Part shown: one piece after another, positions 6,002 through 63,777 of the stretch | Numbering within the stretch: the first letter of the stretch is position 1 | Layout of the letters: each line of letters starts with the position of its first letter | Source: Candidatus Daviesbacteria bacterium | Lineage (GTDB): Bacteria; Patescibacteriota; Microgenomatia; Daviesbacterales; UBA10151 | DNA length: 64,000 bases | Direction: 5' to 3' | Assembly (NCBI GenBank): GCA_016176405.1 | Contig: JACOXG010000004.1 | Coordinates: 9,082-73,081 of the forward strand | Notes under the pieces: generated by a model | What the model saw: the letters and a program-made list of their open reading frames with translations, nothing else | Database searches by the model: none | Told to the model about the DNA's origin: nothing | Position numbers and translations under genes: made by a program

Positions 6002-7515
6002 ATGGTTGAAGTTCTGCCCATTAGAATTTTAAGAGAAGAAGATGGACCTATTTTTGGAAAAGAGGGTGTGGCTCTGGGGAAACTTGACAGAGCCGGTATA
6101 CCGGTAGCATCAGGATTGGTGATAACTGCTCCCCATCTTAAGCTGAGAGTTATTTTAGAGCATCATGATTTTGGATCCAAAGAAGTTTTTGAGCAGTCCC
6201 TAACCTTAGTTAAAAAAGAAATAGAAAAAATTCCCATTCCTGAAGTTTTAGAGCGGGAAGTTGGTCAACACACTCACTTTTGGCTGGCAGATTCTCAAAT
6301 TAAATCAGTTAAAAAACTTTGGTTAAGTTTACTGTTTATTTGGATAGAAGAAATTAAAAATAGACTCTGGCAGGACGGATTTTACCAGGGGATCACGGAT
6401 GGATTGGAATCACAAACGGTGATTTTTGTTAAAAAAATAGAGGGATGGATTGGAATCACAAACGGTGATTTTTGTTAAAAAAATAGAGGCCTGGGGAAAT
6501 GCCTATTTTGATCCCATTCAAGATGAGGTGGTAGTTCATATAAAGCAGGATAAACTTCATCCAAATGATTTGGAAAAGTTGCAAGAAATGGTCAGGCTGG
6601 CCAATAAGAAACTATTTATTCCGCACCAATATGATTGGATTTTAGATAAAGGATTAAAGATCGTTGGAATAAAACCGTTCACACCACCCTTTACTTCACA
6701 TCTATCTGATTTGGTAATTCCTGGCATGTCTACTTATCCCATACAAATAACCCCACTTCATGGGAACGGCATGGGTAAAGAGGCAAAAAGAAGTGTGGTT
6801 AAGGTTTTTTTGGATTTATCAGATGGACTAATCATTGAAAGGGAGGCTGATGGAGTCTATATTGCCGCGGAGAAAATTTTTGATTTAAACAAACCCCGAG
6901 ATTCTTTCGAAGATTTGGTTTTCAGAGTAGTTGAGGCGGCTGTAACTTTTCCCAATAGTCAGATACTTTTTAAATTGGCAGATATGTCAGAAGGAATGGG
7001 AAAGGTAAGAGGTACCTTAAGACTGTTGCATCAAAAAAGTTTATTGGAGCCGCTGATTTGTCAGAGGAGTAGGGGAACTCGTAAAAATCAAACAAGAGTT
7101 ATCTATTAAGAAATTAAAACGCCAAGCCTCTTTACAGTTTTGGTTGGAAATAGCTGTGCCGGAAAATATTATTAATTTGGAGGATTATTTAATGGTGGGA
7201 ATAGATGGAGTAGTTTTAAATTTGGATGAGTTGATTGCTCATTTTAACGGTTTTGACCAAACGCAAGAAGACTTGGTATTTTACAAAAATGAGGTTTCCG
7301 GATTGCTTAAATTTTTAGAAGATAGCATAAAACTGCTTAATAAATCCAAAATTCCTTTTATAGCCTATGGATCTTTAAGCCAATACCAAAAAGTTTTGGA
7401 ATTTTTGGTGGAAAAAGGAGTATATGGAGTGGTGGTGGAAAGATATGAAGTCCCTTCAGCCAAAGATTTGTTGTACCAGACAGAAAAAAGGATGATTTTA
7501 AGAAAATCCTCCTAA
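6002..7515 (+). pseudogene. PEP-utilizing enzyme-like gene (PEP synthase/PPDK-type N-terminal PEP/pyruvate-binding domain + C-terminal TIM-barrel-like domain) broken into three ORFs (6002-6478, 6450-7109, 7144-7515)
   Basis: N-terminal GKEGVALGKL...GIPVASGLVIT resembles the ATP-grasp nucleotide-binding region of PEP synthase; first break coincides with a 46-bp tandem duplication (not a multiple of 3); second frame change near 7050-7060. Confidence 0.45.
6398..6489. repeat. Perfect 46-bp tandem duplication (gatggattggaatcacaaacggtgatttttgttaaaaaaatagagg x2) inside the PEP-utilizing-like gene
   Basis: Two identical adjacent copies read directly; creates the frame break between ORFs 6002-6478 and 6450-7109. 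Confidence 0.9.
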
Positions 7516-12569: not shown

Positions 12570-13642
12570 AACTGCCTGTCCTAAATTCAATATTTTTTAG
12601 GATCACCCTTTTAGACAAAGTGCTTTTTTCTAAACATTTAGCCATTATGTTAAAAAGCGGCATCCCGATTGCTGAAGCAATTATTTCTTTGAGAGATCAA
12701 ACCACCAATATGGCTTTTAAAGAAGTTTTAGCTGCAGTTACTGCTGATGTGGAAAATGGACAAAGCTTGGAAAAATCTTTATCAAAACATCCAAAAGTAT
12801 TTAATACTTTATATCTAAGTTTAGTCTCAACAGGTGAGAAAAGTGGAAATTTAGAAGAAAATTTAGATTATTTGGCTCAACAGCTTCGAAAAAGTTATGA
12901 TTTTGACAAAAAAATTCAGGGAGCCACTCTTTACCCAAAAATTGTACTTGCTGCCACAGCCATTATGGGAGGAACATTATCTTTGTTTGTTTTACCTCAA
13001 CTGGTGACTCTGTTTGCCTCATTAGATGTCAAACTGCCTCTGTCTACTAAAATTTTATTATTTTTTGCCAATACCATGAAAAATTTTGGTGTTTTTATAG
13101 CCTTAGGCTTAGTTATCGCCGCTATCATAGCTTCTCTTGTTTTAAAAACTCCCATCATTAAACCTCTCTGGCATAGATTTTTGATTAGATTGCCAATTTT
13201 TGGCAAGCTGATTCAAAATATAGAACTGGCCAATATCTGTCGAAACTTGGGGATTATGTTAAAGAGTGGTTTAACGGTGACCCAATCTCTTGATGCCCAA
13301 TTTGAAGCCACCCAAAATTTAGTCTTTAAAGATTATTTAGACCATTTAAGAAAAGCAGTAGAAAAAGGGAAAAAAATATCTGATGAGATGTCAGTCACTA
13401 AGTTTAAGTTTATCCCTGCCATAGTTCCCAAGATGGTGGGAGTAGGAGAACAAACAGGTAAGCTAGAAGATGTCTTGATATATTTGGGAGATTTTTTTGA
13501 GGAAGAAGCTGATGATGCCACTAAAAATTTATCAACCACCATCGAGCCAATTCTTTTGCTGATAGTCGGGACAGTGGTGGGATTTGTGGCTTTGGCTATA
13601 GTTACTCCCATCTATGACCTGACATCTGGTATCAAAAAATGA
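12566..13642 (+). CDS. pilC: Type IV pilus platform protein (PilC/GspF family)
   Basis: GspF-type repeated domains and 3 TM segments; translationally coupled to pilB (overlapping stop/start). Confidence 0.85.
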   Translation: MKLPVLNSIFFRITLLDKVLFSKHLAIMLKSGIPIAEAIISLRDQTTNMAFKEVLAAVTADVENGQSLEKSLSKHPKVFNTLYLSLVSTGEKSGNLEENLDYLAQQLRKSYDFDKKIQGATLYPKIVLAATAIMGGTLSLFVLPQLVTLFASLDVKLPLSTKILLFFANTMKNFGVFIALGLVIAAIIASLVLKTPIIKPLWHRFLIRLPIFGKLIQNIELANICRNLGIMLKSGLTVTQSLDAQFEATQNLVFKDYLDHLRKAVEKGKKISDEMSVTKFKFIPAIVPKMVGVGEQTGKLEDVLIYLGDFFEEEADDATKNLSTTIEPILLLIVGTVVGFVALAIVTPIYDLTSGIKK

Positions 13643-14115
13643 GCAAGCTCTTTTCTTCGAAAATGAACAAGTTCTTTTCTTCGAAAATGAGAGGGATCAC
13701 CCTGATTGAATTGCTCATTGTGATTGCTTTAGTTTTAATTGTTTCTGCCATGGGGCCAATCTTTTATTCCAGATTTTTATTACAAAATGCAGTGGAAGAT
13801 ACTGCCAATCAAATATCTGGCAGTTTAAGAAAAGCCCAGACCTATGCCATGATGGGAAAACAGGGTAGTGCTTGGTCCCTAAATTATTCTTCAAACACCC
13901 TAACTTTATATAAAGGTACTAACTTTGCCTTAAGAGATAGCTCATTTGATGAGAAGTTTGATATCAATCCTAATGTAACTATTTCCGGGACAGATATTTC
14001 ATTTGCCAAAGTCACTGGCTTACCAACTCCATCCTCTGCTACTATTACCATCACTTCTGGCAATAATTCTAAAACTTTAACTGTTAACAATCAAGGAGTG
14101 GTCTCAAGACAATGA
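13639..14115 (+). CDS. Prepilin-type N-terminal cleavage/methylation domain protein (pseudopilin/minor pilin)
   Basis: Class III signal MRG|ITLIELLIVIALVLIVSA; three in-frame Met starts created by a 24-bp tandem duplication; true start probably 13687. Confidence 0.7.
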   Translation: MSKLFSSKMNKFFSSKMRGITLIELLIVIALVLIVSAMGPIFYSRFLLQNAVEDTANQISGSLRKAQTYAMMGKQGSAWSLNYSSNTLTLYKGTNFALRDSSFDEKFDINPNVTISGTDISFAKVTGLPTPSSATITITSGNNSKTLTVNNQGVVSRQ

Positions 14116-20575: not shown

Positions 20576-20594
20576 TATTAAACTACGTTCCCAC

Positions 20595-20656
20595 ATCTCA
20601 AGTGGGAAGCTAGATTGTAAATTCCATCTCAAGTGGGAAGCTAGATTGTAAATTCC
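20595..20656. repeat. 31-bp perfect tandem direct repeat x2 (atctcaagtgggaagctagattgtaaattcc)
   Basis: Two adjacent identical copies with no spacer; overlaps the stop codon of the minus-strand ORF 20641-21297. Confidence 0.9.
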
Positions 20657-21362: not shown

Positions 21363-23375
21363 ATGGCAAAGTTTATGATAGTTTCTGACTTTAAACCTAC
21401 TGGGGATCAGCCACAGGCTATTGAGAAGCTGGTGAGTGGATTAAATAATAATGAGAAACATCAAGTTTTGCTTGGTGTGACAGGTTCTGGAAAAACTTTT
21501 ACCATGGCCAATGTGATCCAAAAAGTCCAAAGGCCTACCTTAGTTATTTCTCATAACAAAACTCTTGCAGGGCAGCTGGCTCAAGAATTCAGGTCCCTTT
21601 TTCCCAACAATGCCGTGGAATATTTCGTTTCATACTATGATTATTACCAGCCCGAGGCTTATGTGCCTCAATCAGATACTTATATAGAAAAAGAGACAGA
21701 AATTAATGAGGAAATTGAAAAATTAAGGCTTTCCACTACTACTTCTTTGATGACCCGAAAAGATGTGATTGTGGTGGCCTCAGTATCCTGTATCTATAAC
21801 TTAGGTTCTCCTGTTGAATATGGCGGAGCTATTTTGGAGCTTAAAGAAGGGGTAAGATCTGGATTCCAATCCATTTTGAAGATGTTACAGAAAATGTATT
21901 ACTTGCGGAATGATTTAGATTTTAGAAGATCTACTTATAGAGTTAGAGGTGATACATTGGATATTTATCCTTCATACGCAGATTCTGCTGTTAGAGTAGA
22001 GTTTTTGGGGGACAAGATTGAAAGAGTATCTCATCTTGATCCTTTAACTGGAACAGTTACACCTACTTCCCAAACTTTGACTATTTTTCCTGCCAAACAC
22101 TACATTACTTCTGAGGCCAGATTTGAAGGAGCTTTAAAACAGATTCAGGAAGATTTGGTGGCCAGATTAAAACAGCTTAGGAAACAGGGAAAACTGTTGG
22201 AAGCTCAAAGATTAGAGCAAAGAACTTATTATGATCTGGAAATGATCAAAGAGTTTGGATATTGTAATGGAATTGAGAATTATTCCAGGTATTTTGATGG
22301 AAGAGCTCCAGGTGAGTCACCTTTTACTTTAATGGAATATTTTCCTAAGGATTTTTTACTAATTATTGATGAATCACACATTACTCTTCCTCAAATTAGG
22401 GGTATGTATAATGGTGACAGATCCAGAAAAGAAACCTTGGTTGAGTTTGGATTTAGGCTTCCCTCAGCTTTAGATAATAGACCGCTAAAATACGAGGAAT
22501 TTCAAAGGAAAATAAATCAAGCTATCTATGTTTCAGCCACTCCTGATGAGTATGAATTGAGTTTGGCTGGGGCTCACCTCCGAGGTGAGGGCAAGGTGAC
22601 ATCTGGCACACACCTCGGAGGTGTGGTGGAACAACTGGTCAGGCCAACAGGGATCGTAGATCCACAAATTTCTGTTAGAGGAACCAAAGGACAAATTGAT
22701 GATGTGATCAAAGAGGTAGAAAAACGCGTGGAACGTGGAGAGCGAGTCTTGATCACTACACTTACCAAAAGAATGGCAGAGGATCTGACTGACTATTTGA
22801 AAGAGAAAGGAATTAAGGTGAACTATTTACATTCAGATATTGAGACATTAAAAAGGTCTGATATTTTACAATCTTTAAGATTAGGGGAATTTGATGTGAT
22901 TGTGGGAATTAATCTTTTAAGAGAAGGTTTAGATTTACCAGAAGTAACTTTAGTCATAATCTTAGATGCTGATAAAGAAGGATTTTTAAGATCAAAAACC
23001 TCACTTATACAAACCATGGGCAGAGCTGCTAGAAATATTGGAGGAGAGGTAATTATGTATGCAGATAATGTGACAAAGTCTATGAAAGCTGCTATAGAGG
23101 AGGTGGATAGAAGAAGACAATACCAGGAGGAATATAATAAAAAACATAAAATAAAACCTAGAAGTATTGAGAAAGCTTTAAGGGAAAGGTTAATTGAGCA
23201 AGTTGAAGAGTTAGAAGAGCAATTGGGTAAAAAAGAGTTAAGAGTGGAGGATATTCCACCAAAAGAAAGAGATAAAATGTTAAGAAATTTAGAAACTCAA
23301 ATGAAACAAGCAGCAGAACTTTTGGATTTTGAGGAAGCAGCAAGACTTAGGGATCAAATTAAGGAGCTAAGTTAG
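21363..23375 (+). CDS. uvrB: Excinuclease ABC subunit B (UvrB), carrying an in-frame 18-aa insertion from a palindromic repeat
   Basis: Walker A GVTGSGKTFT, helicase motifs, beta-hairpin region, C-terminal UvrBC coiled-coil domain (EEAARLRDQIKEL); insertion [18 protein letters not shown] between YELSLAG and VEQLVRPTG. Confidence 0.95.
   Translation: MAKFMIVSDFKPTGDQPQAIEKLVSGLNNNEKHQVLLGVTGSGKTFTMANVIQKVQRPTLVISHNKTLAGQLAQEFRSLFPNNAVEYFVSYYDYYQPEAYVPQSDTYIEKETEINEEIEKLRLSTTTSLMTRKDVIVVASVSCIYNLGSPVEYGGAILELKEGVRSGFQSILKMLQKMYYLRNDLDFRRSTYRVRGDTLDIYPSYADSAVRVEFLGDKIERVSHLDPLTGTVTPTSQTLTIFPAKHYITSEARFEGALKQIQEDLVARLKQLRKQGKLLEAQRLEQRTYYDLEMIKEFGYCNGIENYSRYFDGRAPGESPFTLMEYFPKDFLLIIDESHITLPQIRGMYNGDRSRKETLVEFGFRLPSALDNRPLKYEEFQRKINQAIYVSATPDEYELSLAGAHLRGEGKVTSGTHLGGVVEQLVRPTGIVDPQISVRGTKGQIDDVIKEVEKRVERGERVLITTLTKRMAEDLTDYLKEKGIKVNYLHSDIETLKRSDILQSLRLGEFDVIVGINLLREGLDLPEVTLVIILDADKEGFLRSKTSLIQTMGRAARNIGGEVIMYADNVTKSMKAAIEEVDRRRQYQEEYNKKHKIKPRSIEKALRERLIEQVEELEEQLGKKELRVEDIPPKERDKMLRNLETQMKQAAELLDFEEAARLRDQIKELS
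22575..22623. repeat. REPIN-like element family A (cacctcCgaggtg - 23 bp - cacctcGgaggtg) inserted in-frame in uvrB
   Basis: Two 13-bp palindromes in inverted orientation; same arms at 25176-25224 (uvrA), 63728-63777 (dinB) and related palindromes flanking the HuH transposase gene at 48785-48809/49524-49543. Confidence 0.85.
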
Positions 23376-23688: not shown

Positions 23689-23825
23689 ATAAAGTAATCT
23701 TATACCCCTTTAAAAATCTTGTCAAATACCTCATAATATGGTCTTTAAAGATTCAAGGGCTTCCAAAATCTTGCAAAAGAGATTATAATATCCCAGTCAT
23801 TTTTCGGGAATTTTTCGTATGCCTA

Positions 23826-25532
23826 TTGACAAAATTATTATCAAAGGTGCTCGTGAGCACAATCTTGGCTTTTGATACCCTATATGCTGAGGGGCAGAGA
23901 AGATATGTTGAATCCCTTTCTGCTTATGCCAGGCAGTTTTTGGGGGTCATGGATAAGCCTGATGTAGATTTAATTGAAGGATTATCTCCTGCTATTTCTA
24001 TTGATCAAAAAGGAGTTTCACACAATCCCAGATCTACTGTTGGAACAACTACTGAAATTTATGATTACTTAAGGCTACTTTTTGCCAGAATTGGCCATCC
24101 TCATTGTCCTATTTGTGGCAGGGAAATTAGTAGGATGAGTGTGGAACAGATTGTGGAAATAGTCATCAGTAGTCAGTCATCAGCTATCAGCAAGAAGGGG
24201 AGAAGAATCATGGTTTTGGCTCCTGTTGTTAAAGATAGAAAAGGGGAGTACTCCTCGCTTTTTGAAGATTTAAGAAAGAAAGGTTTTTCTAAAGCCAGAG
24301 TTGATGGGCAGATTAGGGATTTGAGTGAGGATTTTGTATTGATTAAAACTAATAAGCACACTATTGATGTCGTAGTTGATCGGCTCGTGTTAGAGTCTAG
24401 AGTCAAGAATCTAGAATCTAGTGAGACACAATATAGACTCTCGACTCTAGCGACTAGACTCTCACAAAGTATTGAAACAGCAGTTAAATTAGGTGAAGGA
24501 TCTGTAATAGTTTCTGATGTTTTAGATGCTTCTTTAGAATTTCCCCAGAGCCCTAAAAAAATGGAAGATCACCTATACTCTGAAAGATTTGCCTGTCCTG
24601 TTGACAATATAGCTCTATCTGAGGTTGAGCCCAGATTATTTTCTTTTAATTCCCCCCACGGAGCTTGTCCAACATGCTCCGGATTAGGTTCTCTTTTAGA
24701 GATTGATCCGGAAATGGTCTTAAACCCAATTTTATCCATTGCTGAGGGTGGAATTTTACCCTGGCAAAAATTAGCCACTCATGAAACCTGGTTTTCCAGG
24801 CTAATTGAGGCAGTGGGTAAGGAATATGGCTTTGACTTAAACACCAGATTAGGACAGCTTTCAGATGAGGCTAAAAAAGTGCTTCTACATGGTTCAGGAG
24901 ACGATGAATTCAGAGTGGAAGGTAGAAATAGACAAGGCAGATGGACCTCATTTTATTCTGAATTTCAAGGCTTAGTTCCATATTTAAAGCAAAGATACCA
25001 AGAATCTGAATCAGATTATGTCAGAGCAGAAATTGAAAAATATATGTATAAAGAAACATGTCCCAAATGTAAAGGGGCTAGGCTTAAAGATGAGGCTTTA
25101 TCAATCACCATTGATGGTTTAAATATTGCTGAGGTGACCACCCAATCTATCAACGAAGCTTTAGATTGGATTGCTCACCTCCGAGGTGAGGGCAAGGTGA
25201 TGTCTGGATCACACCTCGGAGGTGTACTCTCGGAACGAGAATGGCAAATTGCCACCTCAATTGTCAAAGAAATTAAAGCTAGATCACAGTTTTTGATTGA
25301 TGTAGGTTTAGATTATTTAACTTTAGATAGACCCTCTATGACTTTGGCAGGAGGGGAGTCACAAAGGATCAGATTGGCCTCTCAAATTGGTTCAGGGTTA
25401 TCTGGAGTTTTATATGTTTTAGATGAACCCTCAATTGGTTTACATCAAAGGGATAATGCCAGGTTGATTGATACTTTAAAGAGACTGCGGGATTTGGGAC
25501 GGAGGGAAAATTGTCGATACTGGAACCCCTGA
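23826..25532 (+). CDS. uvrA: Excinuclease ABC subunit A (UvrA), N-terminal/central segment; gene appears disrupted
   Basis: [26 protein letters not shown], zinc-finger Cys pairs, ABC signature [12 protein letters not shown]; a separate upstream start [16 protein letters not shown] (23819) is in another frame and the NBD-I Walker A segment is absent; contains three repeat-derived in-frame insertions. Confidence 0.85.
24391..24463. repeat. Palindromic element family C (tagagtctagagtc...agactctcgactctagcgactagactct) inserted in-frame in uvrA
   Basis: Related copy at 52335-52401 (intergenic in the MacAB-like operon); encodes [24 protein letters not shown]. Confidence 0.7.
25176..25224. repeat. 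REPIN-like element family A inserted in-frame in uvrA (encodes [18 protein letters not shown])
   Basis: Same 13-bp inverted palindromic arms as the uvrB copy; spacer differs at a few positions. Confidence 0.85.
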
Positions 25533-25590
25533 CCAAATTAAAAAGAGCCCAGCCTCTTTAACAGGTCAATATTTATCCGGAAAAAAGCAG

Positions 25591-26622
25591 GTGAGAGTTA
25601 ATGGAGAACTGAGAAGACAATATGTGAACATGGGACATTTAAAAATTAAGGGAGCCTCTCAGCATAATTTAAAAAATATCAATGTAGATTTTCCTTTGGG
25701 ACAATTTATAGCAATCACTGGAGTTTCAGGTTCAGGTAAATCAACTTTAATTCATGATATTTTATATAAAGCTTTAGCTCAGAAAGTTTATAAAACTAAG
25801 GAAAGACCAGGAGCTCATAAGGAATTGGAAGGTATGGAGTATGTGGACAAGGTGGTTTTAGTTGATCAATCACCAATTGGTCGGACTCCCCGCTCAAATC
25901 CAGCCACCTACACAGGCGCTTTTACTTTTATCAGAGATTTATTTGCCCAAAGTCCTGAGGCTAAAATCAGAGGTTATGGACCTGGCAGATTTTCTTTTAA
26001 TGTCAAAGGTGGCAGGTGTGAGGTTTGTGAGGGAGAAGGACAGCTCAAAATTGAGATGCAGTTTTTACCGGATGTGTATGTGACTTGTGAGGCATGTAAT
26101 GGTAAAAGATATAACAGAGAAGCTTTGGATATTCATTTTAAAGAAAAAAATATCTCAGATGTTTTAGAAATGACTGTGGAGGAAGGGTTAAAGTTTTTTG
26201 AAAATATTCCTAATTTAAAAAATAAATTACAGGTGTTAAATGATGTGGGGTTAGGTTATATAGGGTTAGGTCAGCCAGCCCCAACCTTGAGTGGTGGTGA
26301 AGCCCAAAGAATAAAACTCTCTTCAGAGCTGTCCAAAAGACCAACAGGACACACAGTTTATATTTTGGATGAGCCCACCACTGGTTTACATTTTGCGGAT
26401 ATAGAAAGGCTTTTGACCATTCTAAGAAGACTGGTTAATTTTGGGAATACGGTCATAATTATTGAGCATAATTTAGATGTGATTAAAAATACCGATTGGG
26501 TCATAGACTTAGGCCCAGAAGGTGGGGATAAAGGAGGGCAAATTATAGCAGAAGGCACTCCCCAAAATATAGCCAAAATCAAATCTTCATATACCGGTCA
26601 ATATTTGGCAAAAATACTCTAA
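25591..26622 (+). CDS. uvrA: UvrA C-terminal segment (NBD-II); frame extends upstream to about 25495
   Basis: Walker [12 protein letters not shown], zinc finger [17 protein letters not shown], signature [12 protein letters not shown], Walker [13 protein letters not shown]-loop IIIEHN; separated from the upstream segment by a frame change plus loss of about 29 aa (NBD-I Walker B/H-loop). Confidence 0.85.
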
Positions 26623-26659: not shown

Positions 26660-28591
26660 ATGTTTAAGAAGCTTTTCAGCCAAGTTATGAGTTATTGGTT
26701 ATGGGTTATGAGTGTCTTATTGTCTTTACTCATAACTCATAACTCATCACTCATCACTCCTGTCTATGCTGCTGAGGAGTTTGCTACCTCATATGAGGTG
26801 GTTTATGACATTACCGAAGATGGAATAACCACAGTTACTGAAAAAATTACCTTAATAAATTTAACTTCTCAATATTACGCCAACCAATTTAAGCTGACCA
26901 TTGGTGCCACCGAGGTTTTTGATGTCAAAGCCTCTGATGATGCTGGTGTCATGGAAGTCAATACCAAAAAGGAAGAAACTAGCACCTCTATTGAGGTTAA
27001 GTTTAACCAACAGGTGGCAGGTCTAGGTAAACAATTGCCCTGGACTTTACAATTTAAATCCAAAGATTTTGCCGAAAAAGTGGGAAAGGTTTGGGAAGTG
27101 AGAGCTCCCAAAATTTCCTCCAGCACCAATTTGGAGTCTTATAATCTGACCATTGCAGTTCCCCAAAGCTTTGGTGAACCAACCCTGATTACACCTAACC
27201 CCAAAAGCCAAACCAGCTCCACAGGTAGGCTATTTTTAACCTTTACCGAGGACCAGATTACCCAATCAGGAGTTTCTGCCAATTTTGGTACTATCCAGCT
27301 TTTTGATTTTGATCTGACCTATCATCTGGAAAATGACAATTTAGTACCCATCTTAACCAATATTGCTCTGCCTCCTGATACTGCTTTCCAGGATGTCATT
27401 TTTCAAAGGATTGAACCTAAGCCAATTAATGTCTCGGTTGATGAGGACGGCAATTATTTGGCCTGGTATCGACTAACCAGAGGCCAAAAATTGGATATTC
27501 AAGTAGTTGGTTCAGCCAAATTATATAGTAGTTCCAAAGTTAAAAATCCTATCTTAAGCGATGATCTCAAAAGAAAATATACCCGAGCAGACAAATATTG
27601 GGAAAGGGATAATCCCCAAATAATCTCCTTACTGACACAAATCCTGGGTGACACCCCTCCTGCCACTACATCAGAAAAGGCCAAATTAATTTTTCGCTAT
27701 GTGGTCAATAGCTTAAAATATGATCAATCCAGACTGACTGACGATATTGAAAGATATGGAGCAGTGACTGCTTTAAATAATCCTACTTCTGCGGTTTGTA
27801 TGGAATTTACTGATCTGTTTATTGCCCTGTCCCGGGCAGCTGGCATTCCTGCCAGGGAGCTCAATGGTTTTGCTTACTCAGCTAACCCAGCCTTAAGACC
27901 ACTTTCTCTAACCAAAGATATTTTGCACTCCTGGCCAGAATATTTCGATGAGAGAGTCGGTTGGGTCATGGTAGACCCCACCTGGGAAAATACCACTGGT
28001 GGGGTAGATTATTTTTCCAAACTTGATTTAAATCATTTTGTTTTTGTCACCAAAGGTTTATCTTCCATTCAACCGATTCCAGCCGGCTCTTATAAATACA
28101 GTGGGCAAGACAGCCGAGATGTCAAGGTGGTTTTATCTGATAAGGATTTTTTGGGGAAGGCCCAGATTAATGTGGAGGTTGAAGCTGCGAACCCCCTTCT
28201 GTCAGGTTTTGGAGGCAAAATAAAAGTTAAAATCACCAATCTAGGCAATGCTCTTTTTTCTTCTACCCCTTTTTCTTTGTCGAGTTCCCAAATATCTATT
28301 CAGTCCCACCAATCCTCAACCACTGGCCCTATACCTGCTTTTGGGACTGCTGAATTTGAATATAATGTCAAAACCAAATCATTATTTGATTCTTTTGATG
28401 ATAATTTAGTGGCTTTAGTCGGTGGGCAGAAATTTGAAAACCCCATCAGTGTTAGGCCTTTTATTCTCTTTCAAAGAGTACCCCTAATTATTTTCTCCAG
28501 CTTGATAGCTTTGATGGTGGTCCTTTATTTAACCATTCTTTTGGTCTTTACCTTAAGAAAAAGACACCTTTGGATATTTAGACCCAAATGA
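26660..28591 (+). CDS. Secreted transglutaminase-like (Cys-His-Asp) domain protein with C-terminal TM anchor
   Basis: Transglutaminase-core motifs AVCMEFTDLFIALSRAAGIPAR...HSWPEYF...VMVDPTW; signal peptide encoded by a heptamer inverted repeat. Confidence 0.7.
   Translation: MFKKLFSQVMSYWLWVMSVLLSLLITHNSSLITPVYAAEEFATSYEVVYDITEDGITTVTEKITLINLTSQYYANQFKLTIGATEVFDVKASDDAGVMEVNTKKEETSTSIEVKFNQQVAGLGKQLPWTLQFKSKDFAEKVGKVWEVRAPKISSSTNLESYNLTIAVPQSFGEPTLITPNPKSQTSSTGRLFLTFTEDQITQSGVSANFGTIQLFDFDLTYHLENDNLVPILTNIALPPDTAFQDVIFQRIEPKPINVSVDEDGNYLAWYRLTRGQKLDIQVVGSAKLYSSSKVKNPILSDDLKRKYTRADKYWERDNPQIISLLTQILGDTPPATTSEKAKLIFRYVVNSLKYDQSRLTDDIERYGAVTALNNPTSAVCMEFTDLFIALSRAAGIPARELNGFAYSANPALRPLSLTKDILHSWPEYFDERVGWVMVDPTWENTTGGVDYFSKLDLNHFVFVTKGLSSIQPIPAGSYKYSGQDSRDVKVVLSDKDFLGKAQINVEVEAANPLLSGFGGKIKVKITNLGNALFSSTPFSLSSSQISIQSHQSSTTGPIPAFGTAEFEYNVKTKSLFDSFDDNLVALVGGQKFENPISVRPFILFQRVPLIIFSSLIALMVVLYLTILLVFTLRKRHLWIFRPK
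26684..26759. repeat. Inverted arrays of heptamer-like direct repeats (gttatgag... / ...ctcataac) encoding the signal peptide of the transglutaminase-like protein
   Basis: Left arm gttatgagttattggttatgggttatgagtg versus right arm ctcataactcataactcatcactcatcactc. Confidence 0.7.
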
Positions 28592-29883
28592 TCCCATCTT
28601 TTATTGATAAATCCAATATTCCACATAGAAGTGGTGTCTATATTTTTAAGGATAATAGGCAAAGTGTTATTTATGTGGGAAAAGCGATTGATTTATATCA
28701 TCGAGTAGCCTCATATTTTGGCAATCATAGTGGTGATGTAAAACTAACAAATTTGGTAAGTAACATTTCTTCAGTGGAAACCATTATCGTGGAATATGAA
28801 CTGGAAGCCTTAATTTTGGAGGCCAACTTAATCAAAAAATACCTACCTCCTTTTAATGTTAGTTTAAAAGATGATAAAGATTATCTTTATATTGGTATTA
28901 CCAAAGAAGATTTTCCCAAAGTCATTACATTAAGAAAACAAGATTTAAAAAGGGTTAAGAAGTTTTTTGGCCCCTTTCCTTCTGCGAGGACCGTTAGAGA
29001 CACACTTAAGCTGTTGCGTCGGGTCTTCCCTTGGTGTGCCAATCCACCTGGATTAAGAAATAGATACTCAAGACCTTGTTTCTATTACCATATAGGTTTA
29101 TGTCCTGGTGTATGTGCTGGATTAATTACTAAACAAGATTACCAGAAAACTATTAGAAGATTTGCCTTCTTTTTGGAGGGGAAAAAAGAGGAGCTGGTAG
29201 AGGAGTTATTTAGAGAAATGGCTGAAGCAGCTAAAGAAGAAAAGTTTGAAGAAGCTTCTAAAGTCAAGAAAATGCTTGATGGTATCAATTATCTTCTCCA
29301 GCCAAATAGAGCTCAGATTTATTTGGAAAACCCTAATTTTTTACAGGAAGAAAACAAACAAGCTCTAGTTAAACTTCAGAAGGATCTTAATTTGGAAAAA
29401 TTACCGGAAAGGATTGAGGCTTATGATATTTCTAATATTCAAGGTAAAGACGCAGTAGGATCAATGGTAGTTTTAACAAATGGTGAGATTGATAAATCTC
29501 AGTACAGAAAATTCAGAATCAGAGTGGCCGGAAGACCAAATGATGTAGGTATGCATAAAGAGATGATCAGACGTCGTTTAAACCATCCAGAATGGCCAAT
29601 GCCTGACTTAATCTTAGTAGATGGAGGAAGGGGACAGGCAAGAGCTGTAAAATTACAAATTACAAATTACAAATTGAATAACCTGCCTTTGGCAGGACAA
29701 ATTCCAGTTCTCGGCTTGGCCAAAAGAATGGAGTGGTTGTACCCACCTGAGGGTGAAGTGATCAAACTTTCCAAAAGAAGTTTAGCATTGAAACTATTGC
29801 AAAAAATTAGAGATGAAGCTCACCGTTTTGCTGTGACCTTCCATAGAAAGTTACACCAAAAATCGGTTATACTGGGATTGTAA
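28588..29883 (+). CDS. uvrC: Excinuclease ABC subunit C (UvrC), short form lacking the C-terminal HhH region
   Basis: GIY-YIG motif SGVYIFKDNRQSVIYVGKA, UvrB-interaction region, RNase-H-like domain ending in IRDEAHRFAVTFHRK; only 431 aa. Confidence 0.8.
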   Translation: MIPSFIDKSNIPHRSGVYIFKDNRQSVIYVGKAIDLYHRVASYFGNHSGDVKLTNLVSNISSVETIIVEYELEALILEANLIKKYLPPFNVSLKDDKDYLYIGITKEDFPKVITLRKQDLKRVKKFFGPFPSARTVRDTLKLLRRVFPWCANPPGLRNRYSRPCFYYHIGLCPGVCAGLITKQDYQKTIRRFAFFLEGKKEELVEELFREMAEAAKEEKFEEASKVKKMLDGINYLLQPNRAQIYLENPNFLQEENKQALVKLQKDLNLEKLPERIEAYDISNIQGKDAVGSMVVLTNGEIDKSQYRKFRIRVAGRPNDVGMHKEMIRRRLNHPEWPMPDLILVDGGRGQARAVKLQITNYKLNNLPLAGQIPVLGLAKRMEWLYPPEGEVIKLSKRSLALKLLQKIRDEAHRFAVTFHRKLHQKSVILGL

Positions 29884-48784: not shown

Positions 48785-48809
48785 CATTCCTACCTCGGAG
48801 GTAGGAATG
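48785..48809. repeat. REP-like perfect palindrome (cattcctacctc-g-gaggtaggaatg) 3' of tal and flanking the HuH transposase gene
   Basis: 25-bp palindrome whose core acctcNgaggt matches family A arms; followed by a T-run, so it may also terminate tal. Confidence 0.8.
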
Positions 48810-48840
48810 AATGTGCACGTAGGGTTTTATCCAGTATTTT

Positions 48841-49518
48841 TTATTCAAGAAGCTTATGTTTAATTAATTCAAGCTTTCTAGCATAATCTACTTGATCTAG
48901 TACAAATTGTTCATATCTTTTGGAATTTTTAAATAATGAGATAACAACTTCCTTATTGCAAATTTTATCTTCTTGTAATTCAAGATAGGATACATATGAT
49001 GACCAAGGATAGTCTCTTAAGTTTTTAACTAAATAGGAAGCAATTGGGTTTAGGTGTATATATCGTGATAAATGTATCAATTGTTCATCTGATTCCACTC
49101 TGACAGCCTTAAATTGTCCTTGGAAGAGTGGCCCAACGCGCTCATGACGTGTATTAAAGTACTTAGTATAGCTGTTAGAAACCTTATTAATGAATTCAGA
49201 GATTCCCTTTTCTTCGAGCTGCCGCAACATAAAGTGATAATGGTTAGGCATTAGGCAATAGCAAATTATTTCCACAATTCTTTTGTTCTTCTCATACTCA
49301 AAATCCTTAAAACGATTTAACTGAGAAAATTGAGGTTTGGGTCCCTGGAATTGGTAATAGTAGATCGTCTCTAAGAATCGATTGTAATCTCTTCGATCAT
49401 CAAATACCGGCATCTTTGCCACTCCACGATTAAAAACATGGTAGACTTGGCCAGTGGCCAATGGAATTATTCGATAGGGCATAAATTCTACTAAACCACA
49501 TATTACCCAAGGTGTCAA
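48841..49518 (-). mobile_element. IS200/IS605-type HuH tyrosine transposase, probable REP-associated tyrosine transposase (RAYT)
   Basis: HuH motif LMPNHYHFM, catalytic Tyr region LSRYIHLNPIASYLV (compare E. coli RAYT YIYINPVKHGWV); flanked on both sides by REP-like palindromes of the same family dispersed in the window. Confidence 0.75.
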
Positions 49519-49523
49519 TACAT

Positions 49524-49543
49524 TTCCACCTCGGAGGTAGGAG
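49524..49543. repeat. REP-like palindrome (ttccacctc-g-gaggtaggag) immediately 5' of the HuH transposase gene
   Basis: Matches the left-flank palindrome and family A arms. Confidence 0.8.
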
Positions 49544-49586
49544 TAAGTTTGGAGTATTGTATACTTAATAAATCTAACTAGAGCTT

Positions 49587-51136: not shown

Positions 51137-52327
51137 CTACTCATGTCTTAATGCTTCGATGGGATCTAGTTTAGCTGCCCTGATAGCTGGAGCGACTCCG
51201 AAGATTATTCCTACCAGCATGGAGAAGCTAAAAGCCAGGGCTACTGACCAAATAGGAACGGTGGTAGTGAAAAATCTGCCAATTATAAATGACAGGCCAA
51301 TACCCAAAATAATCCCAATAATTCCACCAATCCCAGATAAAGTCACTGCCTCAATTAAAAACTGATTTCTAATATCAGAAGGTTTAGCTCCCACAGCTTT
51401 TCTTAGACCAATTTCTCTGGTTCTTTCTGTCACGGATACCAACATGATATTCATAATTCCAATCCCTCCCACAATTAAGGATATAGCCGCAATTCCTCCC
51501 AAAGCTGCTGTTAAAACCCCGGTGATTTGGGAGATAGTAGATAAAGTTTGTTCCTGTGTTTGAACAGTAAATTCATCCTCAGATAATCTTTTTCCCAAAA
51601 TACCTTGGGCCCTTTTTTGTACATCCTTAACATCTTCAGCAGTCTTGGCAGAAATATAAATGGTATTAAGATTCTCAATACCAAATTGTCTTTCGGCCGA
51701 AGCAAAGGGTACATAAATAGAGTTATCAAAATCTATGCCAAAAACAGCCCCCCTGGGTCCTAAAACGCCAATCACAATATATTTTAATCCCGCCACATCA
51801 ATAGTTTGATTCAAAGCTTTGCCTGAAGCAAATAGATTACTTTTAACTGTTGGTCCAATCACCGCCACTTTCTTGGAGGAATCAGCCTCAGACTGTCTAA
51901 AAAATCTGCCCTCTGTAATTTTAATGGAAATAACCTCTGGATAATTGGCCTCCACTCCGAAAACAGCTGCTCCCTTATCTGTTTTACTGCCATATTTTAA
52001 GGTAGCATTTCTTTGAATTGCAGCTGAAACATCCGCTTCACCATCTAATTTATTCCTTAAATTAATAGCGTCCTGGTAAACTAATCTGTTGGCCTGGACT
52101 CCGCCAGGGGATCTGGCTCCCCCAATCCTACCAGGGATAACAATCAATAGATTTGAACCTAAACCTTGAATTTGAGACGTAATAAAAGTTTGCAAACCGG
52201 AAACCAAGGAGATGAGCAAAATGACTGATGTTACACCGATCACAATACCAAGAATGGTCAGAAATGACCTCATTCTATTGGCAAGAATAGCAGTTAAAGC
52301 CGACTGTGTTGTTTCCAAAAAATCCAT
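51137..52327 (-). CDS. ABC transporter permease, MacB/FtsX-like
   Basis: N-terminal TM, large periplasmic MacB_PCD-like domain, C-terminal FtsX 3-TM bundle. Confidence 0.8.
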   Translation of the reverse strand: MDFLETTQSALTAILANRMRSFLTILGIVIGVTSVILLISLVSGLQTFITSQIQGLGSNLLIVIPGRIGGARSPGGVQANRLVYQDAINLRNKLDGEADVSAAIQRNATLKYGSKTDKGAAVFGVEANYPEVISIKITEGRFFRQSEADSSKKVAVIGPTVKSNLFASGKALNQTIDVAGLKYIVIGVLGPRGAVFGIDFDNSIYVPFASAERQFGIENLNTIYISAKTAEDVKDVQKRAQGILGKRLSEDEFTVQTQEQTLSTISQITGVLTAALGGIAAISLIVGGIGIMNIMLVSVTERTREIGLRKAVGAKPSDIRNQFLIEAVTLSGIGGIIGIILGIGLSFIIGRFFTTTVPIWSVALAFSFSMLVGIIFGVAPAIRAAKLDPIEALRHE

Positions 52328-52334
52328 AGTTAGT

Positions 52335-52401
52335 GACTAGAGTCGAGAGTCAAGAGTCTAGATTTGTTTTCCTAGACTCTAGATTCTAGCGACTAGACTC
52401 T
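52335..52401. repeat. Palindromic element family C between the MacB-like permease and ATPase genes
   Basis: gactagagtcgagagtcaagagtctag ... ctagactctagattctagcgactagactct; related to the insertion in uvrA. Confidence 0.7.
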
Positions 52402-53063
52402 ATTCTCCCATCCTTCAGCCTAATAATCCTCTTGGCATGTTTGGCAATATTTGCTTCATGTGTAATCATAATAATAGTTTTGCCTTCCCAATTTAGTTTT
52501 TGGAAAATTTTGATAATTTCCTCACCCGATTTAGTATCCAAATTTCCGGTTGGCTCATCTGCTAGAATAAGTTCAGGATTATTAACTAAGGCTCTGGCAA
52601 TGGCCACTCTTTGTTGCTGACCACCTGAGAGTTGATTAGGATGAGATTGCAGCTTGTCTGCCAGCCCCACCTCATCTAATGCCTGTTTTGCTCTTTGCAG
52701 TCTCTCTGGTTTGCTCACTCCCGCATAAATCAAAGGTATGGACACATTATCCAAGGCAGAGGTTCTGGGTAAAAGATTGAAAGATTGAAAAACAAAGCCA
52801 ATTTTTTGATTTCTAATTTCTGCTAATCTTTCTTCTTGGAGATGAGCTGTGTTTTGTCCATCAAGTTCATATATTCCTGAAGTTGGATGATCTAACAGCC
52901 CAATAATATTCATTAAAGTGGATTTGCCGGAACCGGAAGCGCCTATGATGGCTATGTATTCACCTTTTTTGACCACTAAATTAATACCTGCTAGGGCTTT
53001 CAGAGAAACTTCACCGCTGACATAGATTTTGTTTATATTGGTTAGTTTAACTAGGGTGCTCAT
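52386..53063 (-). CDS. ABC transporter ATP-binding protein (MacB/LolD-type)
   Basis: Walker A GASGSGKST, signature LSGGQQQRVAIA, Walker B ILADEPTGNLD, H-loop ITHE. Confidence 0.9.
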   Translation of the reverse strand: MSTLVKLTNINKIYVSGEVSLKALAGINLVVKKGEYIAIIGASGSGKSTLMNIIGLLDHPTSGIYELDGQNTAHLQEERLAEIRNQKIGFVFQSFNLLPRTSALDNVSIPLIYAGVSKPERLQRAKQALDEVGLADKLQSHPNQLSGGQQQRVAIARALVNNPELILADEPTGNLDTKSGEEIIKIFQKLNWEGKTIIMITHEANIAKHAKRIIRLKDGRIESSR

Positions 53064-60548: not shown

Positions 60549-62267
60549 TCAGTCGGAAAATGGTAGCAGCTGCCAAAGCTCTTTTGGGTTTAATAAATTA
60601 GCCAAAATTGCTGGCTGAAGTTCACCAAAATCCAAGGTATTTAGACCTGATAAGACTTTTTGACGAATGGTTACAGGATGATAGGATTTTCTTTCCAAAG
60701 TAAAGTCAAAAGCGTAATCAGGCAGTAAGTACCTAGCCTCCATTTCCTTTGACAAACCATCATCATCAAGATTAACAGCTTGTAAACTCTCACCAGCCGG
60801 ACCTTCTATCCTGAGAAGATATTCACCCTCCGCTGATTCTTTCCATTTTAAAGAAGATTTTAATTTTAGGATGACAGGGGATTTAATTTGAGTATTAAAT
60901 TCTAAAGGAGGAGAATCAAATTGTCTGATATTTGAAAAGAGATTTAGAACACTCTTAAAAGGTCCTTTAATCGGTGCTTTAACACTAAAATTAAAGGTAT
61001 ATTCTTTTCCGGGCTCAACTTTTATATCTTTAGGTATTGGTATTTCTGCAATACCTGACTGATCAGCCCCTTGAATAAATTTAAGTTTGACTAAATCTCC
61101 ATCATTCCAAATTGACTGACCATTATTTTTAAATTTTAAGGAAATATTATATTCCTCTCCTGCTACCATAGTAGAAAATATTTCACCTTTTTCAAGTTGA
61201 GCTCTATTTTCTTGCCGAGGTTTTCCAGCTATTTTAGGCATATCTAAAATAGTTTGAAATTGAGGGTAAAACTCGGAAGACTCAACCTTTTTAAATGAAA
61301 AATGAGCAAATAAAGGTTCCTGATAACTTAGTAAAAATGGAGTAATGGCCACAATATTTTGAGAATTCCATGCTCCTTCAAAAGCATTTTTATAATGAGT
61401 AGCAACTGTGTCTGCACTTGGCAAAGATGGATCAAAGCTTACTCCCTCAGCATGTTTCCATCCGGTTTCAGTGATAAATACTGGTAAGTCTTTACTTAGC
61501 CCTAAACTTCTTAAAACTTGTAGCTCCCAAATATAAGTTTTGACAGTGCCTCTACCTACTGCAGTAGGAGAACCTCTAAATTCCGGATTTGGGTATGAAT
61601 GGGATACCCAGCCATCAAGTTTATTAAATATACCTGGAACAGCTTTTTCCATTTCTTGTAAAAATAATCTTTCATCAAAATAGTTAGGGGGCTGATGTGG
61701 GGCAGAAGCATCAAGACCCGCGTTAAGAACAAAAAAATCCTCAGATTTTTTCTTTAAAGCATCGATAGTTTTATTTAAAACTTGGGCATAAGAGATAGGA
61801 TCTGTCACATTATTCCACTCTTTGCCATGGTTGGGCTCATTGTAGATAATCACATATCTGTTTTTGGTAGGCCAATTCAGATTATCCAAAAAGTCTGCCC
61901 AAGCTTGTTCTTCTCCCTCATATGGCCTTTCCCAATGCTCATTTAAAGGTTTGGTAGCCAATCTGACAATGGGAATCAGATGTCTTTTTCTTAAATCATT
62001 AAAAAATTCCTGCCATTTTCCCTGATTCCTATCTTTACTCTCTATTAAAAAAGTAATATATCCCCAGTCTCCATTGGTATTTACCAACTGAGCAGCTGGA
62101 GAGGATTCATCAGGAGTAGCCTGAATAATATGGATGCCAAACTTGTTGTTTGGGACAGTGAGGGGGTCAACTATTGCTGAAACAGTGGACAGTGGACAGG
62201 TTACAGTGAACAGGTAGAATAAAATACTGTAACCTAATACCTGTAACCTAAAACCTAATTTGCTCAT
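60549..62267 (-). CDS. Secreted glycoside hydrolase, GH5-like (cellulase superfamily) with C-terminal beta domains
   Basis: Catalytic acid/base IYNEPNHG (NEP) and nucleophile FITETGW motifs; signal peptide encoded by a heptamer inverted repeat. Confidence 0.55.
   Translation of the reverse strand: MSKLGFRLQVLGYSILFYLFTVTCPLSTVSAIVDPLTVPNNKFGIHIIQATPDESSPAAQLVNTNGDWGYITFLIESKDRNQGKWQEFFNDLRKRHLIPIVRLATKPLNEHWERPYEGEEQAWADFLDNLNWPTKNRYVIIYNEPNHGKEWNNVTDPISYAQVLNKTIDALKKKSEDFFVLNAGLDASAPHQPPNYFDERLFLQEMEKAVPGIFNKLDGWVSHSYPNPEFRGSPTAVGRGTVKTYIWELQVLRSLGLSKDLPVFITETGWKHAEGVSFDPSLPSADTVATHYKNAFEGAWNSQNIVAITPFLLSYQEPLFAHFSFKKVESSEFYPQFQTILDMPKIAGKPRQENRAQLEKGEIFSTMVAGEEYNISLKFKNNGQSIWNDGDLVKLKFIQGADQSGIAEIPIPKDIKVEPGKEYTFNFSVKAPIKGPFKSVLNLFSNIRQFDSPPLEFNTQIKSPVILKLKSSLKWKESAEGEYLLRIEGPAGESLQAVNLDDDGLSKEMEARYLLPDYAFDFTLERKSYHPVTIRQKVLSGLNTLDFGELQPAILANLLNPKELWQLLPFSD
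62183..62258. repeat. Inverted arrays of heptamer repeats (..ggttacag.. / ..ctgtaacc..) encoding the signal peptide of the GH5-like protein
   Basis: acagtggacaggttacagtgaacaggtag versus ctgtaacctaatacctgtaacctaaaacctaa. Confidence 0.65.
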
Positions 62268-62340: not shown

Positions 62341-62398
62341 GTCACAAGTCAAGGGTCATGTGTCATGATACCTGATACATGATACTTGATACATGATC
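62341..62398. repeat. Heptamer-type repeat array (gtcacaagtcaagggtcatgtgtcatga / tacctgatacatgatacttgatacatgatc)
   Basis: Direct and inverted 6-7 nt units; overlaps the start of small ORF 62393-62635. Confidence 0.6.
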
Positions 62399-63727: not shown

Positions 63728-63777
63728 CCACCTCCGAGGTGAACCCAGTATTTCAACTAGTGCACACCTCGGAGGTG
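63728..63777. repeat. REPIN-like element family A inserted in-frame in dinB (encodes HLRGEPSISTSAHLGGV)
   Basis: ccacctcCgaggtg - 23 bp - cacctcGgaggtg. Confidence 0.85.

Follow-up and report, generated by a model that had tools for sequence, protein, structure and literature searches.

Rickettsia palindromic elements (RPEs) are dispersed repeats that occur between genes and also in frame in unrelated housekeeping genes, where the extra peptides are compatible with protein fold and function (PMC10969869). Among other small bacterial repeats, REP sequences (short for repetitive extragenic palindromes) have by definition a conserved GTAG or CGTC head, a tetranucleotide on one side of a palindrome of 20-40 nt (PMC3733652), and MITEs (miniature transposable elements with inverted repeats), such as Correia/NEMIS and ERIC, are small and non-autonomous, with inverted ends, and sometimes form in-frame fusions (PMC10969869). 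Here we describe a dispersed repeat, denoted family C, in a 64-kb stretch of Candidatus Daviesbacteria (Candidate Phyla Radiation [CPR]/Patescibacteria) DNA, hereafter the window, with one copy in frame in uvrA. Family C is probably a non-autonomous, hairpin-forming dispersed repeat of Daviesbacteria that is selfish or neutral, with the uvrA copy being a survivor in a permissive loop. By comparison with known systems, it appears to be an RPE-like repeat of a new, heptamer-armed kind.

Family C resembles RPEs in consisting of dispersed palindromes that are present in many copies per genome, in frame in conserved genes (a dinB-like gene as well as uvrA), and in having hosts whose genomes are small and leave little room between genes. 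RPEs differ in being described as simple insertions of ~100-150 bp with their own conserved open reading frame (ORF) and no 7-nt units, whereas family C copies are 58-78 nt long and have heptamer arms. Furthermore, none of the six frames is open in the standard family C copies, native sequence is overwritten by the uvrA copy, family C belongs to a CPR host, and the two repeats are not similar in sequence. RPEs are the closest analogue in behavior, but family C does not belong to the RPE family.

With respect to the build of the arms, family C is reminiscent of the cyanobacterial STRR and SDR repeats known from the work of Mazel (1990) and Elhai (2008), which comprise tandem 7-nt units, often in inverted, hairpin-capable arrays, and very small repeats that turn up at new sites without target duplications. 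Family C shares the tandem heptanucleotide units but is found in a CPR host rather than in heterocystous cyanobacteria, and its unit TAGAGTC is not known among the STRR units. Abundant arrays of another 7-nt unit, TAACTGA, occur in Beggiatoaceae and cyanobacteria; these are described as intergenic, with 169 direct sets and one indirect set (PMC4679880). The TAACTGA arrays share with family C an abundant 7-nt unit but are direct arrays rather than hairpins with complementary arms and do not lie in ORFs.

A heptamer-armed hairpin in frame in uvrA

The uvrA copy occupies 24391-24463 (plus strand, 73 nt). The left arm (24391-24421) consists of 4.4 heptamers (TAGAGTC TAGAGTC AAGAATC TAGAATC TAG), the 12-nt loop (24422-24433) reads tgagacacaata, and the right arm (24434-24463; TAGACTC TCGACTC TAGCGAC TAGACTC TC) is roughly complementary to the left one. 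An inverted-repeat finder placed the arms at 24388-24420 and 24434-24466 (33 nt, 76% complementary, 13 nt apart). Period-7 arrays were detected by Tandem Repeats Finder (TRF) in both arms of this copy and of a second copy in the window, located at a MacAB-like gene junction. The 14-mer TAGAGTCTAGAGTC, with two or fewer mismatches allowed, occurs nine times in the window, always within these two loci, compared to the 0.30 occurrences expected from shuffled sequences, none of which (0/100) reaches nine. Between the two copies, only 2 of the 29 right-arm positions differ, and the irregular unit TAGCGAC is present in both; such near identity, extending to an off-consensus unit, argues for copying rather than convergence. 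The folding energies of the uvrA and MacAB-like copies (-24 and -27.5 kcal/mol) correspond to modest z-scores against shuffles (-1.4 and -2.3, respectively), so that it is the repeat family, not the folding energy, that carries the statistical case for family C. In the reading frame of uvrA, the copy there is open, with a predicted 23-residue peptide. The arms, the TRF arrays, the 14-mer counts, and the open frame all bear out an earlier, sequence-only reading of this segment as a palindromic dispersed-repeat element in frame in uvrA.

The copy at the MacB-like ATPase/permease junction

The second copy (52331-52402, plus strand) is close to the family consensus and has stops in 6/6 frames. It comprises a left arm (52331-52362; TAGTGAC TAGAGTC GAGAGTC AAGAGTC TAGA), a loop (52363-52371), and a right arm (52372-52402); the inverted-repeat finder gave arms at 52331-52361 and 52372-52402 (31 nt, 74%, 10 nt apart). 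The adjacent genes, both on the minus strand and downstream of a membrane-fusion protein gene, encode a MacB-like ABC ATPase (52386-53063) and a MacB-like permease (51137-52327). The ATPase ORF extends 17 nt into the element, from which its last five codons and TAG stop (52386-52402) come, with the predicted end ..GRIESSR*; the ATG of the permease gene (52325-52327) is 3 nt off the other end of the element. This permease is 100% identical to P0121, a Daviesbacteria protein in NCBI encoded on a 75.6-kb contig, whereas an exact look-up of the window UvrB gave no match. In relatives with permeases 87% and 85% identical to that of the window, the two genes either share a single base or are 2 nt apart, compared to which the junction in the window contains ~70 extra nt. 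Thus, the site is empty in relatives, and a true insertion has taken place at the MacAB-like junction. An independent Logan contig from this organism has one of its ends inside the element, as expected of a repeat. The proposal that a related copy lies between the permease and ATPase genes therefore holds for the presence of a sister copy, given the 27/29 match of the right arms, but not for its being intergenic because it overlaps the 3′ end of the ATPase gene. A terminator and promoter scan of 52000-52700 revealed nothing at the element, and an Rfam search at gathering thresholds yielded five tRNAs only, with no match at the family C elements.

Family C in Daviesbacteria genomes

A scan of one genome per species with the pattern AGAGTCNAGAGTCN{25,55}GACTAGACTCT yielded 29 loci, about half of these on low-GC, Daviesbacteria-type contigs, and a metagenome scan added 8 further loci. 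From both scans, we compiled 24 distinct family C copies of 58-78 nt, in about a dozen Daviesbacteria assemblies. The consensus, TAGTGACTAGAGTCGAGAGTCAAGAGTCTAGA-loop-CCTAGACTCTAGATTCTAGCGACTAGACTCTA, is almost identical to the MacAB-like copy in the window, and the ends have the form (T/A)AGTGAC... and ...GACTAGACTCT(A/T). Nineteen copies are intergenic, typically located between a stop codon and the following start codon. The in-gene copies were found in uvrA (four genomes) and in a dinB-like gene (two genomes, L005 and L022); in the latter, Y-family DNA polymerase-like ORFs (2495-3796 in L005 and 5957-7225 in L022) contain the element in frame, in the opposite orientation, right behind the SIDEVFLE motif. 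There are many copies per genome, namely, two in the 64 kb of the window and four in the parts examined of the 769-kb JACPDA01 scaffold JACPDA010000004.1 (one in uvrA and three intergenic).

Several of the loci identified in these scans (L006-L008, L015, L019, L022, and L026) are labeled “uncultured Gammaproteobacteria bacterium,” a label that appears to be wrong; these loci have ~40% GC, and L006 is on the same contig as L002, which encodes the Daviesbacteria-type UvrA P0011. The GC-rich DATMIB01 assembly (titled Steroidobacteraceae; L009, L014, L017, L020, L021, and L027-L033) contains at least 15 hairpins with AGAGTCT/AGAGTTC arrays around a GC-rich core palindrome. The architecture of these hairpins is family C-like, in an unrelated lineage, and the heptamer match was forced by the search pattern.

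Whatever the frame, translation of a perfect (TAGAGTC)n array gives *SLESRV, with one stop per 21 nt, so that survival within a gene requires a non-TAG unit in the used frame; units with AAG or GAG instead leave the frame open. None of the 19 intergenic copies has an open frame (0/6 in each), whereas the four uvrA copies and the dinB-like copy have one or two, the used frame among them. In the uvrA copy, the left arm has AAG and the right arm TCG as the in-frame unit, and the in-frame TAGs are gone. Coding and non-coding copies thus differ in stop-codon content. Family C copies also vary by whole 7-nt units, which we read as slippage: the intergenic copies of L008, on the one hand, and L018 and L049, on the other, differ by exactly one heptamer.

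Given that heptamer number does change by slippage and that period-7 arrays dominate the tandem repeats of the window, the hairpin might have grown locally, inside uvrA, from native seeds (TTAGAG.../L-E and ...AGACTC/R-L), with the likeness to the MacAB-like copy arising by convergence. The ends of the element coincide with codons of conserved residues (LES and SRLS), and the element-free L040 natively has GTAGACTCTCA at SRLS, as such an origin would predict. Local growth is nevertheless largely refuted by the finding of over 20 nearly identical copies, spread over unrelated loci of about a dozen assemblies, and neither the right-arm match that includes TAGCGAC nor the empty MacAB-like site in relatives fits it; we consider this scenario very unlikely.

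The uvrA copy overwrites a native linker

The best relatives of the window UvrA (up to 83% identity) are all from Candidatus Daviesbacteria or Patescibacteria, and the gene is located in the neighborhood lexA-like, uvrB, uvrA, transglutaminase-like gene, uvrC. In the alignment of the window UvrA with 120 Daviesbacteria orthologues, 112 lack family C sequence at the site, four (P0022, P0011, P0005, and P0019) contain the full 21-residue form, and four (P0024, P0049, P0115, and P0091) a shortened form. Most orthologues have a linker of ~12 residues after VDRLV, for example, LDTKVIHEQTFT, followed by SRLSQS, whereas in the window, there are 21 residues followed by TRLSQS. At the DNA level, the window, L001, L002, and L012 share the 73-nt element in the same codon register, in place of which the closest element-free uvrA genes (L003 and L039) have 46 unrelated nt. 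The ends of the element re-encode native residues, with LES for LD(T/K) and TRLS for SRLS. Thus, the uvrA copy is an insertion that overwrites native linker sequence. The net gain is 9 amino acids compared to element-free Daviesbacteria UvrAs and 15 compared to the solved UvrAs of M. tuberculosis, Geobacillus, and E. coli. The addition of about 25 amino acids initially proposed was an overestimate because 46 nt of native linker were overwritten. The same reading would have been undermined by conservation of the segment in orthologues lacking such repeats elsewhere; the alignment gave the opposite result, with 112/120 orthologues lacking the segment. The element-bearers checked come from assemblies with family C sequences elsewhere, namely, JACPDA01 (three intergenic copies) and CAZAZW01 (an arm in uvrB); in GCA_034680565 (L001), no second copy was seen besides the one in uvrA.

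The insert is located in the UvrB/Mfd-binding domain (residues 131-248 in E. coli and 129-255 in M. tuberculosis [PMC3025350, PMC3167621]), between its last strand (..IDVVVDR..) and last helix (RL.(E/Q)S.ETAL). The Arg and Glu of this helix correspond to R216 and E222 of E. coli, by counting along the alignment with 4DFC chain B, and the last AGA of the element codes for the R216 homologue. In E. coli, R216 and E222 have been mutated as the “UvrB interaction surface” (PMC3025350). AlphaFold2 modeling of the domain (mean predicted local distance difference test [pLDDT] score 78) yielded a strand (residues 89-99), followed by a loop of low confidence (100-108) corresponding to the left-arm peptide (pLDDT <50 at 103-106), and a helix at 109-132 that includes the right-arm peptide and is continuous with the native helix. 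The prediction is thus for a longer native helix, extended by the right-arm peptide, and for a flexible loop formed by the left-arm peptide.

The same UvrA loop contains different inserts in other Daviesbacteria, and the two checked at the DNA level are strong hairpins of other families. The L040 insert is an GTCATTGCGAGC-type hairpin (GTCATTGCGAGCGTAGCGAAGCAATC...GATTGCTTCGTCG...CGCAATGAC, -40.6 kcal/mol), and the L041 insert is an GTCATTCTGAGG-type hairpin (GTCATTCTGAGGCC...CAGGATGAC, -44.9 kcal/mol). From the sequences, this loop appears to be a permissive hot spot, filled by at least three unrelated hairpin elements across Daviesbacteria lineages. The inserts of P0009, P0070, P0082, and P0101 start with SVI and end with ND, consistent with GTCATT...AATGAC ends.

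Conservation and distribution of the uvrA copies

Among the window, L001, and L002, codons for the same amino acid are identical in 86% of the cases in the arms compared to 46% in the rest of uvrA, and identity falls to this background within the six codons on either side of the element. The loop codons vary freely among the bearers (ETQY, NNDP, and ESQS). Orthologous intergenic copies show a similar pattern, with 90% identity in the element and 68% in the flanking gene.

These observations bear on the possibility that the 21-residue segment is a selected protein module recruited for UvrA function, for example, for tuning UvrB or Mfd binding near the R216 homologue. The insert directly precedes the R216/E222 contact helix of the UvrB/Mfd-binding domain (PMC3025350), the right arm is predicted to extend this helix, and the peptide arms are conserved in four genomes. 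The conservation, however, extends to the codons rather than only to the amino acids and ends abruptly at the borders of the element, the codons of the loop are unconstrained, and 112 of the 120 orthologues do without the segment. Decayed half-copies in P0024, P0049, and P0115 and the unrelated elements at the same site elsewhere also argue against recruitment, which makes it an improbable explanation of the insert.

Alternatively, the hairpin could be kept as a cis-acting nucleic acid element, such as a protein-binding site, an mRNA stabilizer or attenuator, or a translation-coupling device, with the uvrA copy just happening to be translated. Conservation of the arms well above that of the flanking coding DNA, combined with variable loops, at both coding and orthologous intergenic sites is what such a role would entail, and many of the intergenic copies lie within operons, directly against a start codon at one end and a stop codon at the opposite end. 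That adjacency, however, is expected anyway with spacers of 0-60 nt, the folding z-scores are modest, and neither an Rfam match nor a terminator-like site was detected at the element; on balance, this role seems rather unlikely.

Each bearer has a UvrA that is more similar to element-free UvrAs (87-92% identity) than to those of the other bearers (80-83%; up to 90% within P0011/P0005/P0019). By these sequence identities, the element-bearing UvrAs do not appear to form a clade. At the same time, the four uvrA copies have the same boundaries, the same 73-nt length, and the same TAG-to-TCG change. This distribution can be read either as one old allele, laterally spread or lineage sorted, with the arms held by a DNA-level constraint, or as repeated capture at the same microhomologies.

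Two possible interpretations of the uvrA copies were examined and dismissed. A recombination patch between lineages is unsupported inasmuch as codon identity drops right outside the element, although an old transfer would still be compatible with the data. The shared TAG-to-TCG change was rejected as proof of a single origin: the left arm of the consensus, GAGTCGAGAG, contains CGA, to which TCG is exactly complementary, so that correction of one arm by the other could recreate it repeatedly.

Spread of family C

The arms of family C are short arrays, one of a heptamer that contains CTAG (TAGAGTC or a variant of it) and one of its complement. Under the favored explanation, a selfish or neutral hairpin repeat, the element would be copied to new places, mostly into tiny gene spacers and occasionally into genes. 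An in-gene copy would persist only if the in-frame unit is a non-TAG variant (AAG, GAG, or TCG) and the site is a permissive surface loop. The uvrA copy, exchanging a 12-residue linker for 21 residues, would be such a case, and the insert would be neutral or nearly so for UvrA function.

Additional information on the mode of copying comes from uvrB of the P0011 genome (L002, 8275-8310), which contains a family C left arm, TTAGAGTCTAGAATCAAGAGTCTAGAGTCAAGT, coding for LESRIKSLESS. This arm replaces a native helix stretch of exactly equal length, where the native DNA is weakly 7-nt periodic; the window uvrB has the native sequence at this position. There was no consistent target-site duplication in the 24 copies, the empty sites coming only from 85-87% identical relatives with different junction sequences, and none of the three Y1 transposase genes examined (in the window, L011, and L012) is flanked by family C. 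The equal-length overwrite in uvrB and the replacement of 46 nt in uvrA, together with the lack of visible target duplications and of a transposase bracketed by family C, favor templated overwriting. We infer that templated copying, through ectopic gene conversion or template switching seeded by microhomology, is favored over cut-and-paste transposition.

Family C can also be compared with MITEs and REPs. Like MITEs, family C has terminal inverted repeats, the whole element being an imperfect palindrome, but in the loci examined, it comes without a visible target-site duplication or a recognizable parent insertion sequence, and the entire element is a hairpin of short tandem units; of the defining features of MITEs, it shows only the palindromic build. 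With REP and REPIN elements and their RAYT (Y1, IS200-like) transposases, family C shares the persistence of short hairpin repeats conserved over long times. It differs in lacking both the association with the Y1 genes and the GTAG/CGTC head, in having arms made of heptamer arrays, and in lying within ORFs (uvrA and dinB-like, with an arm in uvrB) rather than solely in extragenic DNA. Family C is therefore not a REP/REPIN member.

Several considerations weigh against the selfish or neutral repeat as the explanation. The arms are conserved far above neutral sites, unlike purely selfish decaying DNA, which implies ongoing homogenization, recent arrival, or a sequence-specific constraint. Copies with the same boundaries, length, and TCG change in bearers that do not group together need lateral spread of one allele or repeated site-specific capture. 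In the loci examined, neither an enzyme nor a donor copy for family C was identified. The insert is one or two residues from the UvrB-contact residue R216 (PMC3025350), and its neutrality is an assumption; the inserted UvrA peptide itself is predicted from translation of the DNA.

In a different scenario, possible but doubtful in our estimation, family C would not be a transposon at all. Templated overwriting would act on native stretches resembling its 7-nt units, the arms would be held across Daviesbacteria species by a sequence-specific factor, and the arrays could time and again supply proteins of these reduced genomes with helical segments, possibly also with signal peptides, with repeated capture at loops such as the one next to R216 of UvrA. 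Three 7-nt units make 7 codons, so that the arms translate into heptad-like peptides; as part of this templated-overwriting scenario, both arms may yield amphipathic peptides of this type (ESRVKSL/RLSTLxx).

The state of uvrA in the window and other repeats in the gene

In the window, uvrA (23819-26622, plus strand) is split into three frames by two frameshifting deletions, one of 77 nt after 23866 (23866-23867), removing the Walker A motif of the first ATPase module, and one of 86 nt near 25499 (~25499-25500), removing the stretch from Walker B to the H-loop of the same module. The 5′ region of the gene is intact in four independent Logan assemblies of the same organism (L050-L053), so that the 77-nt deletion probably reflects an error in this contig or else a minor variant. 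The possibility that uvrA is a pseudogene was rejected given the absence of the first deletion from these four assemblies. Intact full-length UvrAs of other species carry the family C element in frame, so that its in-frame status is independent of this contig. A contig with at least one deletion that independent assemblies lack is not free of errors, and the element could in principle be an assembly or sequencing artifact as well. However, three further genomes that were assembled independently (L001, L002, and L012) have this element at an identical codon position of uvrA, and a Logan contig from the organism of the window covers part of the MacAB-like copy; an artifact thus seems extremely improbable.

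A family A palindromic doublet (25176-25224, plus strand; CACCTCCGAGGTG ... CACCTCGGAGGTG) with units ACCTCCGAGGT at 25177 and ACCTCGGAGGT at 25213 is also in frame in uvrA, where it is predicted to encode 16 residues in a second UvrA loop, ~10 amino acids more than in most orthologues. Family A elements occur in at least seven other UvrA orthologues among those listed. The third repeat suspected in the gene, “agtcatcag x3” at 24165-24195, corresponds to a weak period-7 array (AGTCATC, 24161-24195, plus strand; 3.3 copies, 75% matches, TRF score 32 with a floor of 30) predicted to encode 11 residues of a variable loop of normal length. This stretch has the modal length among 121 Daviesbacteria UvrAs, with QSSAISKKG found also in P0025 and P0028 and QSSAISRKG in P0029. 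Being conserved in length and, in part, in sequence among orthologues, an outcome that the sequence-only reading itself had named as refuting, it is not an insertion in this genome. Thus, of the at least three repeat-derived insertions attributed to uvrA by the sequence-only reading, those of family C and family A were confirmed and the third was not, which leaves two.

Family A, the Y1 transposase, and other repeats in the window

The window encodes an IS200-like transposase (Y1_Tnp; 48841-49518, minus strand, 225 amino acids; Pfam E-value 1.2e-8) flanked by single family A palindromes ACCTCGGAGGT at 48792 and 49528 (region 48790-49545). Family A doublets, with the palindromes 36 nt apart, are found in frame in uvrB (22575-22623), in the uvrA site described above, and at 63730/63766 (63729-63777). 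The combination of family A and Y1_Tnp resembles a REPIN/RAYT arrangement, and the Y1 paralogues of L011 and L012 each have different palindromes, of their own, on their flanks. Hairpin-handling enzymes are thus present in the window, none of them tied to family C.

Two other heptamer-armed hairpins coincide with predicted signal peptide-like N-termini. One (26677-26771; AGTTATG/ACTCATA) corresponds to the hydrophobic N-terminus of the transglutaminase-like ORF (26660-28591, plus strand), orthologues of which have unrelated N-termini, some of these repeat-like too. The other (62181-62258; ACAGTGG-type/AACCTGT-type) corresponds to the N-terminus of the ORF at 60549-62267 (minus strand). The remaining tandem repeats include AAATTAC x3.7 (29650-29675, 100% matches) within the uvrC ORF and a CATGATA x4.9 array (62364-62397); roughly one in three tandem-repeat rows of the window has a period of 7 or 14. 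Perfect 46-nt and 31-nt tandem duplications and a 24-nt repeat (x2.3, 90% identity) were detected at 6397-6489, 20594-20656, and 13636-13691, respectively. In view of the deletion in uvrA, they may reflect joins made during assembly and not biology.

Implications

In-frame “selfish” palindromic DNA in housekeeping genes has been treated so far mainly as a peculiarity of Rickettsia and is now found also in a CPR bacterium, in an element of a different build, with arms of 7-nt units and standard copies closed in every frame. Our search of the literature for palindromic or REPIN elements in CPR/Patescibacteria yielded no description of such repeats. Repeats of this kind break short-read contigs and inflate the apparent protein-length variation in CPR gene families, and they may explain many “lineage-specific insertions” of CPR proteins. 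The conservation of the arms beyond that of synonymous sites, the equal-length overwrite in uvrB, and the non-clade distribution of the uvrA copies combine to make family C a testable case of very small repeats moving or persisting without an obvious transposase.

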